Below are positions 10,262 through 11,824 of a stretch of 17,427 nt of DNA, piece by piece (within the stretch, counting starts at the first letter, position 1; every line of letters starts with the position of its first letter). The stretch is from Escherichia coli (lineage in GTDB: Bacteria > Pseudomonadota > Gammaproteobacteria > Enterobacterales > Enterobacteriaceae). Location of the stretch: NCBI RefSeq assembly GCF_003334305.1, contig NZ_QOWS01000040.1. One strand, given 5' to 3'. The translations under genes were made by a program, and so were the position numbers. Under the pieces are notes generated by a model. The model was not told where the DNA came from and ran no database searches. It saw nothing but the letters and a program-made list of their open reading frames with translations.

Positions 10262-10878
10262 TTTTTTCTCGTCTTTCTGGTTTGATGTCATTGAGCTATA
10301 AAGTAGTCAATAAACAATATTGACCGATCGTCTAATAATCAACGCTGATATCCCAGTGTTTGTCAGAAAACAAGAATTGCTTTTCTTTTCATCAGGTTAA
10401 ATCTATCTTTTTTGATTTATATCAAACCAGATTCGGTCTTCAATTATATAGGCATCAATGTTAGCGGTCCTACAAGATACGCAGTCGATGCTTCAGGGCG
10501 TACTGATGAAATAAAACAAGTAGGCTGAGATTAGTTGGTCTGCTCATCGCTCACAGCGGACCTTCAGCTTCGTTAGCCAAGCGCTGACATAGTTACCGAT
10601 GTAGCGTGTTAATCTGTCGGGAGCATAGCCGAAATCACTTAACCCATTAGACTTCACCTAAAACTGCAAAAATTACCGTCTTTGTCACACTCACCGAGTT
10701 TAATCAAACTAACACTGTACATAGTGCGAACAAGAGCCAACCAGAAAGACTGTTCAGCATCAACAGTGAAGTTTTTCCCCGCCACTTCCCCGCAATTCCT
10801 CCGCAGTTTTCCCACTAGAGAGTTCGACACATCCCTTGCATACCAACGCTTTGATTCAAATCTCGGTAGTGCATCCAA

Positions 10879-11324
10879 TTAGTAGAATATGTGTTTTTCG
10901 ATAAATGCTCCGATCACTTTTTCGTGGATCTCAACTGAGCGTGAGAAGCAGATTGTTTACGAGCCAACCGCTTAATGTGGGTGCGTAGCGTCAGATTATT
11001 ACGCTCAATGCGTTGGGTGAATATTTTGCCGGTCAGATGCTTATTCTTCGGCACCACCCGGCCATAGCTGTCCCAGTCATCGCTGGTGAGCATGCCGATG
11101 TTGAAGGGTGTAAGCAGTGCCAGTAGCTCCCGGCACGTTTGATCGGTTCGGGGACCAAAAGTGTAGGCCAGTACACCGCCTGTTTTGGTGTTGTACGCGT
11201 ACCAGAGCCAGTGTAGCCGGGCTTTACTGCCAACGTAGCTCCATTGCTCATCAAGCTCGCAGATAAGCGCCACATCAGCATGGGCAACAGGCGAAGAAGT
11301 TATTTGCGTTGGCGCGAGTTTTTT
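10879..11324 (-). pseudogene. insB: IS1-family InsB' transposase frame, apparently frameshifted near the 3' end
   Basis: The frame entered by -1 slippage at A6C encodes …ELDEQWSYVGSKARLHWLWYAYNTKTGGVLAYTFGPRTDQTCRELLALL…IFTQRIERNNLTLRTHIKRLARK, then reads QSASHAQLRSTKK* and stops at 10914. A different frame encodes SVEIHEKVIGAFIEKHIFY*, resembling the canonical InsB C-terminus …SVELHDKVIGHYLNIKHYQ*, with its stop inside the terminal IR at 10879-10881. This implies an indel near 10955. Confidence 0.6.
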
Positions 11325-11572
11325 AAAGTCCGGATGATGGTGTTAATACCAATTTTCAGTGTCCTGGCGGTATCGCGAACCCCGGCACCATTAAAGGCCA
11401 TTTCAGTGATCATCTCTTTCATACCCGGCTTACGTGCTTGATAAGTATAAGTGAGCTGAAACACACGGTGGCAGTCACGGCAGCGAAATCTGTCACGGCC
11501 TTTAGGGTTCTGACCATGGCGGTAAACCTGAGCTGACTGACAACGGGGACAATGAATATTAACGCTGGCCAT
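11300..11572 (-). CDS. insA: IS1-family InsA (zinc-finger/HTH regulator)
   Basis: 90-aa ORF MASVNIHCPRCQSAQVYRHGQNPKGRDRFRCRDCHRVFQLTY… with a Cys4 zinc-finger arrangement, roughly half identical to E. coli IS1 InsA by eye. Ends just after the A6C slippery motif, as in IS1. Confidence 0.85.
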   Translation of the reverse strand: MASVNIHCPRCQSAQVYRHGQNPKGRDRFRCRDCHRVFQLTYTYQARKPGMKEMITEMAFNGAGVRDTARTLKIGINTIIRTLKNSRQRK

Positions 11573-11824
11573 GAGATAACCTCAAAAGCCCGTATTATAC
11601 ATCAGATTCAACCAATTAGAGGCATCACCCTTTCCTACATTCGTAGGACTTTGATTACATATAGCAAGGGTTAATTCTTATATACATAGAATAAATTAGG
11701 AATATAATGAATTTTATCGTGACGACCTTATTTATAATTAATTTATATCGTCAGAGAAATTAGTGTCCACAATATGAAGTCTTACAAAGAGATTCTATGA
11801 TTTAAAAAAAATAAGAGCCAGCTT

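Follow-up and report, generated by a model that had tools for sequence, protein, structure and literature searches.

The locus analysed here raises the question of whether a decarboxylase operon of Escherichia coli lost a cognate regulator or its promoter when an insertion sequence came to lie in front of it. The window, which means the whole stretch of DNA that was analysed (17,427 nucleotides), is a piece of an E. coli chromosomal island, and the decarboxylase operon lies inside the fec island. The features of the window are collected in Table 1. The first-pass annotation had reported an IS1 element and an AT-rich leader immediately upstream of the operon and no regulator gene next to it, and both observations were reproduced; the absence of an adjoining regulator was read from the list of open reading frames, from profile matches and from the IS1 that occupies the DNA beyond the 3' end. 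The broader statement that the window holds no regulator gene was correct for the surroundings of the operon, but not for the window as a whole, in which fecI and fecR are present as the fec operon's own regulators. The acuI/yhdH-like fragment between the IS3 remnants and the IS1 element is cut off by the IS3 remnant, is given in RefSeq as a pseudogene missing its C-terminus and is not part of the cassette.

Table 1. Positions of the features in the window.
Feature	Position	Strand	Evidence or remark
fecIRABCDE	235-7780		
fecI and fecR, regulators of the fec operon	235-1706		only regulator genes noted inside the window
IS3-family remnants	8917-9880		
acuI/yhdH-like oxidoreductase, N-terminal fragment	9914..10291	(-)	NCBIfam acrylyl-CoA reductase N-terminal match
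Orphan non-coding DNA, ~570 bp, left of IS1	10292..10864	(.)	
IS1-family insertion sequence, 765 bp, defective	10865..11629	(-)	ORF matches, inverted repeats, A6C motif
insB-like ORF	10914..11273	(-)	NCBIfam transpos_IS1, 144.1 bits
insA-like ORF, 90 aa, zinc ribbon and HTH	11300..11572	(-)	NCBIfam transpos_IS1, 95.8 bits
Operon leader, 195 bp, 27.2% GC	11630..11824	(+)	
Perfect 16-bp palindrome TCCTACATTCGTAGGA	11633..11648	(+)	4 bp from IS1 end
Best sigma-70 candidate, TATACA-16 nt-TATAAT	11681..11708	(+)	10/12 consensus matches
Alternative -10-like block TTAATTTATATC	11738..11749	(+)	position agrees with the Klebsiella/Citrobacter-type promoter-like block
Antiporter 1, 489 aa, basic amino acid/polyamine antiporter subfamily	11825..13294	(+)	TIGR00905, 488 bits (cut-off 409)
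Decarboxylase, AdiA-like Orn/Lys/Arg-family PLP enzyme, 789 aa	13399..15768	(+)	
Antiporter 2, 499 aa, paralog of antiporter 1 (~55% identity)	15843..17342	(+)	
GC-rich hairpin after antiporter 2, no T tract	17374..17399	(+)	homologous hairpin in the closest IS-free relative

The identity of the operon was investigated with profile models. The decarboxylase scored 739.9 bits with NF011603, the NCBIfam arginine decarboxylase model, which is under the cut-off of 1167 bits, and its best solved relatives were biodegradative arginine decarboxylases (E = 1e-190). The two antiporters scored 146 and 155 bits with the AdiC model NF007929 (cut-off 574 bits), and by the NCBIfam cut-offs they were not AdiC, CadB or PotE. 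An Orn/Lys/Arg-family PLP decarboxylase is thus co-operonic with APC-family antiporters, and judged by its sequence the cassette is to be placed among the decarboxylase/antiporter modules. The proteins of the closest IS-free relative, locus L087, carried the Pfam domains OKR_DC_1_N, OKR_DC_1, OKR_DC_1_C and AA_permease_2, and at 90% identity its decarboxylase clustered with the E. coli enzyme. The terminator scan made no call on the hairpin behind antiporter 2. No literature on this locus was found by full-text searches, including one by protein accession; PMC3446290 was irrelevant.

The cassette was compared with known systems. Like adiA-adiY-adiC of E. coli, it pairs a large AdiA-like PLP decarboxylase with genes for antiporters of the APC superfamily, but its decarboxylase scores under the AdiA equivalog cut-off, its antiporters belong to the TIGR00905 subfamily rather than to AdiC, and two antiporter genes flank the enzyme gene. 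An AdiY-type AraC activator was absent from the window and from the E. coli flanks, and none was conserved beside the cassette in relatives. The likeness to cadC-cadBA consists in an inducible-type decarboxylase with an antiporter whose gene comes first in the operon, whereas no ToxR-like membrane activator gene adjoins the cassette and the scores with the CadA and CadB models were well below the cut-offs. The speF-potE operon with its speFL leader peptide is a precedent for a decarboxylase/antiporter operon without an adjacent regulator gene; the cassette differs from it in that searches of the leader revealed neither a conserved ORF nor an RNA element.

Members of the IS1 family are recognized by a length of ~768 bp, inverted repeats starting GGT(G/A)ATG, insA/insB' with an A6C motif, and an 8-9 bp target duplication. 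The upstream element agreed with the family both in length and inverted repeats and in insA/insB' and A6C. Its terminal inverted repeats (GGTAGTGCATCC... and GGTGATGCCTCT...) were imperfect, with matches at 20 of 27 positions, and the A6C frameshift motif (AAAAAAC) was kept at 11318-11324. The transposase was not intact. Near its 3' end, in the C-terminal part, insB has an additional frameshift that makes the ORF end 49 bp short of the IS end, and the RefSeq CDS of the transposase, which runs to window position 10879, is labelled 'frameshifted'. Identity to canonical IS1 was ~60%. A 9-bp target-site duplication was absent (left flank TCAAATCTC, right flank CTTTCCTAC), and the sole flanking direct repeat, CTTTGATT, lay off the junctions. 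The missing duplication indicates a rearranged copy and not a non-member; the upstream element belongs to the IS1 family in a degraded form.

A second, canonical IS1 begins 3 bp past the end of the window (~17430), and the same junction was present in every E. coli locus read. The arrangement resembles IS1 (IS1A-type) and Tn9 in that two IS1-family elements bracket the cassette and the upstream element has the length, repeats, insA/insB' and A6C motif of IS1; it differs in that the upstream element is frameshifted, the two elements are unlike and target duplications are missing. A Tn9-like IS1 composite transposon was rejected because the two IS1s were 60% identical, their inverted repeats differed, and no duplication was found either at the outer flanks (TCAAATCTC versus TACAACTGG) or at the inner flanks. 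On the 3' side of the downstream IS1 the strains differed, with an IS600 remnant, a MarR-family gene between two IS1A copies, or ISEc23. The E. coli loci read beyond the window end had no regulator consistently encoded just downstream of the operon; the place where the first-pass annotation had allowed for one is taken by the canonical IS1.

The junction between IS1 and leader was the same in 14 of 14 E. coli loci, which had at least five different left-hand contexts. It was retained even where IS3 or other later insertions had shortened IS1 to 129 bp or 33 bp, and the 10 E. coli contexts retrieved with the exact protein sequence of antiporter 1 likewise had this junction throughout. An identical junction across contexts implies that it was ancestral to the E. 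coli copies. Since the target duplication is missing and the left-hand DNA is unrelated, the 5' boundary of the cassette appears to have been set by an IS-associated rearrangement, and a single ancestral event of this kind would have fixed it at 195 bp. The same two observations imply only that the original continuation of the leader is gone. It is reasonable that the IS may have trimmed the control region, and a loss of more distal control sites is probable on this reading. The ~570 bp to the left of IS1 were confined, within E. coli, to this island (404 genomes), and positions 10300-12300 were 100% identical to several complete E. coli chromosomes.

In one alternative, the IS1-associated rearrangement deleted the gene of a dedicated activator (e.g., an AdiY-like AraC protein) that once lay upstream, and the operon was left an orphan. 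The absence of an IS1 target duplication and the unrelated left-hand DNA are in keeping with such a deletion, but six-frame translation of 10292-10864 and an NCBIfam search of its open stretches revealed no gene or regulator remnant.

Outside the E. coli locus, the order antiporter-decarboxylase-antiporter was kept free of IS elements in ~15 genomic contexts. The closest IS-free relative was represented by metagenomic loci L087-L092 from a high-GC host, with 87.8% nucleotide identity over 11859-17365, and further IS-free metagenomic loci with the cassette were L093, L094 and L095. The other IS-free hosts were Klebsiella sp. BIGb0407, Citrobacter sp. JGM124, Hafnia alvei, Serratia sp., an Enterobacter-plasmid type, Providencia rustigianii, a P. 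rettgeri plasmid, three Proteus species, Alcaligenes endophyticus, three Bordetella species and Commensalibacter intestini. The neighbours of the cassette were unrelated and different in nearly every context: an 8xMP membrane protein with a choloylglycine hydrolase homolog, fumarase with malic enzyme, an ABC transporter, sucrose genes, hdeA/hdeD, slp/yfdX/hdeD, serS, and a FomA-family porin. The hdeA and hdeD neighbours of one context and the slp, yfdX and hdeD neighbours of another would support a role in acid resistance. The porin was an occasional partner of the cassette.

No regulator was conserved beside the cassette across the ~15 IS-free contexts, and regulator-family genes flanked it directly in four contexts only. 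In Klebsiella sp., a LysR gene lies downstream, and two further loci with the same upstream context lack it; in Hafnia, a LacI gene beside the sucrose genes flanks the cassette; and in Proteus and Alcaligenes, AraC-family genes lie directly upstream. In B. trematum, an AraC-family gene lies ~4 kb upstream. The closest relatives (L087-L094, Klebsiella sp. and Citrobacter sp.) had no regulator adjacent upstream. The expectation of an adjacent activator, drawn by the first-pass annotation from acid-inducible decarboxylase operons, thus fails for this cassette family. The finding that it had named as its refutation, homologous loci of the same upstream sequence with neither IS nor regulator, was obtained in part: IS-free and regulator-free loci exist, but none of them has the E. 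coli upstream sequence.

The AraC genes upstream of the cassette in Proteus, in Alcaligenes and at a distance in B. trematum are the evidence from relatives that could speak for a deleted activator. In P. mirabilis, which lacks the cassette, an 89%-identical ortholog of the Proteus gene occupies the corresponding site, with dmsABC-like genes on one side and an MFS/TetR pair on the other. The backbones were collinear (81-83% identity), and at the position of the 6.1-kb cassette of P. faecis, P. terrae and P. penneri there are 58 bp in P. mirabilis; the inserted unit includes its own upstream region of 480 bp with 18% GC. Because P. mirabilis has the AraC gene without the cassette, the gene is a resident of the Proteus backbone, and the comparison of the inserts shows that the cassette travels with its leader and without a regulator. 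The Proteus protein is one of the NimR-like AraC proteins, a very widespread family, and shares only 37% identity with its Alcaligenes counterpart. AraC was rejected as the cognate regulator in Proteus for its backbone position and NimR-like family. A regulator could still have been present in the donor of the E. coli copy, which is not among the sampled genomes. With the closest relatives free of an adjacent regulator, the deletion of a dedicated activator is quite unlikely, and the earlier suggestion that the insertion removed a regulator is left unsupported: the cassette of the relatives normally goes without a regulator gene, and the Proteus AraC gene is part of the backbone. No cognate regulator would have been removed, because the cassette normally has none adjacent to it. 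The operon is better described as a horizontally mobile cassette of three genes, which elsewhere seems to move with its own AT-rich 5' region and without a regulator gene.

The leader was compared with those of the relatives. Upstream non-coding regions of the IS-free loci were mostly 438-1800 bp long, the L087-type leader measuring 457 bp, with short ones in Serratia (194 bp) and Commensalibacter (at most 217 bp). The 195-bp leader of E. coli is at the low end of this range, yet inside it. Between E. coli and L087, identity was 80% in spacer 1 (z = 14.7), 78% in spacer 2 (z = 12.7) and 61% in the 3' tail (z = 7.1), and the leaders aligned at the shuffle level (z = 0.9). No homolog of the E. 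coli leader was detected, and alignment to 17 IS-free upstream regions remained at the shuffle level. L087 and L094 have 78% identity and the same genomic context, and their leaders were nonetheless unalignable, so leaders turn over fast even in situ. The E. coli leader may accordingly have drifted or have been replaced. The JGI metagenome contigs were scanned with two exact patterns, a junction pattern without the IS1 end and an internal leader pattern; both gave 0 matches, and as even the IS1-linked form is absent from these contigs, the result says little about an IS-free leader.

In the composition profile the leader ranked with the window's most AT-rich segments, compared with 49.6% GC in the operon. 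The candidate TATACA-16-TATAAT was the best sigma-70 match in 10700-12000; it starts 51 bp inside the leader, with a predicted transcription start at ~11715, and it was invariant in 13 of 13 E. coli copies. The scanned region gave three hits to the sigma-70 consensus, against 2.0 +/- 1.6 in shuffles. A ribosome-binding site is also present in the leader. The leaders of the E. coli copies were identical apart from four polymorphic sites, all of them downstream of the predicted promoter (13 copies). In Klebsiella/Citrobacter-type leaders a promoter-like block, TTTACG-17-TATACC, is conserved ~70-100 bp ahead of the start codon; a similar -10-like block was present in the leaders of Proteus. A promoter block conserved so near the start codon suggests that the core promoter, where conservation is visible, lies within the distance that E. 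coli keeps. Transcription would accordingly start, in the preferred reading, at the native proximal sigma-70 promoter predicted in the leader. The block TTAATTTATATC may be an alternative -10 element (11744-11749), for which transcription would start at ~11756, as a weak lead noticed post hoc, and the palindrome TCCTACATTCGTAGGA may form a weak terminator-like hairpin or serve as an operator. The first-pass annotation had also considered that the IS displaced the promoter; an IS rearrangement appears to have set the 5' boundary, but a near-consensus sigma-70 candidate remains in the leader.

Whether IS1 itself supplies a promoter was examined from the same scan. An outward promoter of IS1, or a hybrid promoter at the junction, would drive the operon in this explanation, and IS1 ends are reported to provide the -35 element of hybrid promoters (Prentki et al. 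1986). Inside IS1, the sole match facing outwards was ATGAGA-16-TATTAT at 11571-11598, which agrees with the consensus at 9 of 12 positions. This is the threshold value and within the shuffle expectation, and the leader holds a better promoter. Moreover, the transposase points leftwards, opposite to the operon, and insA with its promoter faces away from it; the canonical -35 element TTGGCA reads TTAGAG here, with no -10 element 17 bp downstream. An IS1-derived promoter, which had been one of the earlier proposals, is very unlikely.

Regulation purely in cis, by a leader peptide or a structured 5' UTR as in speFL, was also weighed. The leader holds an ORF of 18 codons, MNFIVTTLFIINLYRQRN (ATG at 11707), with an AGGA motif 5 nt upstream, and its 'NLY' end resembles small ORFs at equal distance in the Klebsiella and Citrobacter leaders. 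This likeness stems from the conserved DNA block TTTACG-17-TATACC, since the leader of L095 has the block and no start codon. The ATG overlaps the predicted -10 element, and no small ORF was conserved across 18 leaders. The Rfam search of the leader gave no match, and the predicted fold of the 5' UTR was no better than that of shuffled sequence (z = +1.1). The leader peptide MNFIVTTLFIINLYRQRN was rejected, as it is not conserved and its resemblance is that of a promoter-like DNA block, and purely cis-acting control is extremely improbable.

The prevalence of the cassette in E. coli was investigated. Leader and antiporter 1 were carried by 510 of 5426 complete E. coli genomes (~9%), among them the type strain ATCC 11775, ATCC 8739 and an APEC O1:K1:H7 strain, and at least 80% of the segment of leader and 5' gene was retained in 495 of the 510 carriers. 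In 13 E. coli copies from different contexts, all of which descend from an IS1-bearing ancestor, all 39 ORFs were intact. Their coding polymorphism comprised 12 synonymous and 4 nonsynonymous sites, a pN/pS of ~0.1 or about a tenth of the neutral ratio, and dN/dS between E. coli and L087 was 0.06-0.09. The genes of the cassette are intact and under purifying selection in E. coli. Some lineages were disrupted, either by IS1A, with loss of antiporter 1 together with the 5' end of the decarboxylase gene, or by IS3 inside antiporter 1.

These results bear on the possibility that the cassette is cryptic in E. coli, a silent passenger of the fec island in slow decay. The IS-dense neighbourhood, the disruptions by IS1A or IS3 in some strains and the AT-rich leader, which by analogy is plausibly prone to silencing, are compatible with a cryptic state. 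Intact ORFs in all 13 copies, the low pN/pS and the retention of the segment in nearly all carriers argue against it, and it is unlikely. The opposite effect of the insertion was considered by analogy with the bgl operon. IS1 and IS5 activate the H-NS-silenced bgl operon, and the present locus is similar in that an IS lies in AT-rich DNA just upstream of an operon that looks horizontally acquired. Truncation by IS1 would then have removed the distal portion of a long, AT-rich silencing region of the H-NS type, such as would normally accompany the cassette, and made a silenced, host-agnostic cassette expressible in E. coli, which is rather unlikely; if true, de-silencing would explain the fixed junction in ~500 carrier genomes and the continued purifying selection.

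Taken together, the operon is probably a regulator-free mobile cassette whose 5' boundary was fixed by an IS rearrangement and whose native proximal promoter is under host control in trans. This control would be exerted by host factors, for example by H-NS-type silencing of AT-rich DNA and by global stress regulators. The results suggest that the lack of a neighbouring regulator is characteristic of the cassette family and was not inflicted by the IS, and that the arrangement reflects ordinary island mosaicism and is not evidence of a lost activator. They point attention to the 195-bp leader and to control by host factors in trans. The cassette itself, with its substrate, the reason for its two antiporters and its occasional porin partner, is a more worthwhile target than the question of IS1 and the regulator.

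A canonical IS1 began 3 bp beyond the end of the window (17427 onwards), so that the cassette of antiporter 1, the AdiA-like decarboxylase and antiporter 2 had an IS1-family element on either side. The two elements were unlike, at 60% identity, and the inner junctions of both were fixed across E. coli. The E. coli cassette had two decay variants. In one, IS1A had taken the place of antiporter 1 together with the 5' part of the decarboxylase gene; in the other, antiporter 1 was split by an intact IS3. The acuI/yhdH-like gene fragment and the 570 bp of DNA upstream of it occurred within E. 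coli only in the fec island that carries the cassette (404 genomes), and this region had no intact counterpart. The region is thus a second foreign segment of the island. The IS3 remnant of strain ATCC 43896 contained a group II intron (ltrA reverse transcriptase/maturase), which was absent from the window.

The closest IS-free relative of the E. coli cassette was found on a metagenomic contig (L087, JGI 3300031418). The host flanks had about 61% GC versus 53.5% GC for the module, and the thiFG genes of the host gave no match by blastn against E. coli; thus, the cassette was foreign in the L087 host too. The module was 88% identical to the E. coli copy, an identity that is accordingly due to horizontal transfer. 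In Proteus, the cassette and its own leader (480 bp, 18% GC) formed a clean 6.1-kb insertion with an AraC gene on one side and an MFS gene on the other. The corresponding site of P. mirabilis was empty, with an AraC-MFS gap of 58 bp.

In the 195-bp AT-rich leader between the upstream IS1-family element and antiporter 1, the 16-bp sequence TCCTACATTCGTAGGA formed a perfect palindrome at a distance of 4 bp from the end of the IS1. The palindrome may form a hairpin or act as an operator-like site, at a length that does not clearly exceed chance in 195 bp. Leaders of the Klebsiella/Citrobacter type showed a conserved promoter-like block, TTTAC(G/A)-17 nt-TATAC(C/A), about 70–100 bp upstream of antiporter 1. 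The E. coli leader had TTAATTTATATC at the equivalent distance.

Features of the cassette loci and their coordinates
Feature	Locus	Coordinates	Remark
Canonical IS1	L001	27131-27898	
acuI/yhdH-like fragment and upstream DNA	window	9900-10864	
Group II intron	L001 (ATCC 43896)	16677-18185	
Decay variants, E. coli	L085; L086	3891-6674; 4463-7193	
Cassette insertion, Proteus	L004	3774-9890	
Empty site, P. mirabilis	L112	7759-7818	
16-bp palindrome	window	11633-11648	
Promoter-like block	L005; L095; L002	8335-8372; 6890-6930; 8335-8375	
117-bp antiporter stretch	window	12044-12159; 16080-16195	
FomA-family porin-like genes, Providencia/Bordetella	L019; L008; L009	14085-15137; 14100-15122; 14062-15120	same orientation as antiporter 2
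Equivalent gene, P. rettgeri plasmid	L084	13582-14607	annotated as hypothetical
hdeD-like gene, hdeA	L098 (Serratia sp.)	4856-5806	
slp, yfdX, hdeD-like gene	L099 (Enterobacter-plasmid-type contig)	2168-4644	

The antiporter paralogs shared a 117-bp stretch with 81% identity, well in excess of an overall level of about 65%; gene conversion or strong constraint on the segment could account for this. In Providencia and Bordetella, antiporter 2 was followed by a FomA-family porin-like outer-membrane protein gene, and the module may thus include a fourth gene there. Its position in E. coli was taken by the 3' IS1.

Acid-stress genes lay a short way upstream of the cassette in two loci: the Serratia sp. 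had an hdeD-like gene (DUF308) and hdeA, and the Enterobacter-plasmid-type contig had slp, yfdX and an hdeD-like gene. These neighbors support a role of the cassette in acid resistance.
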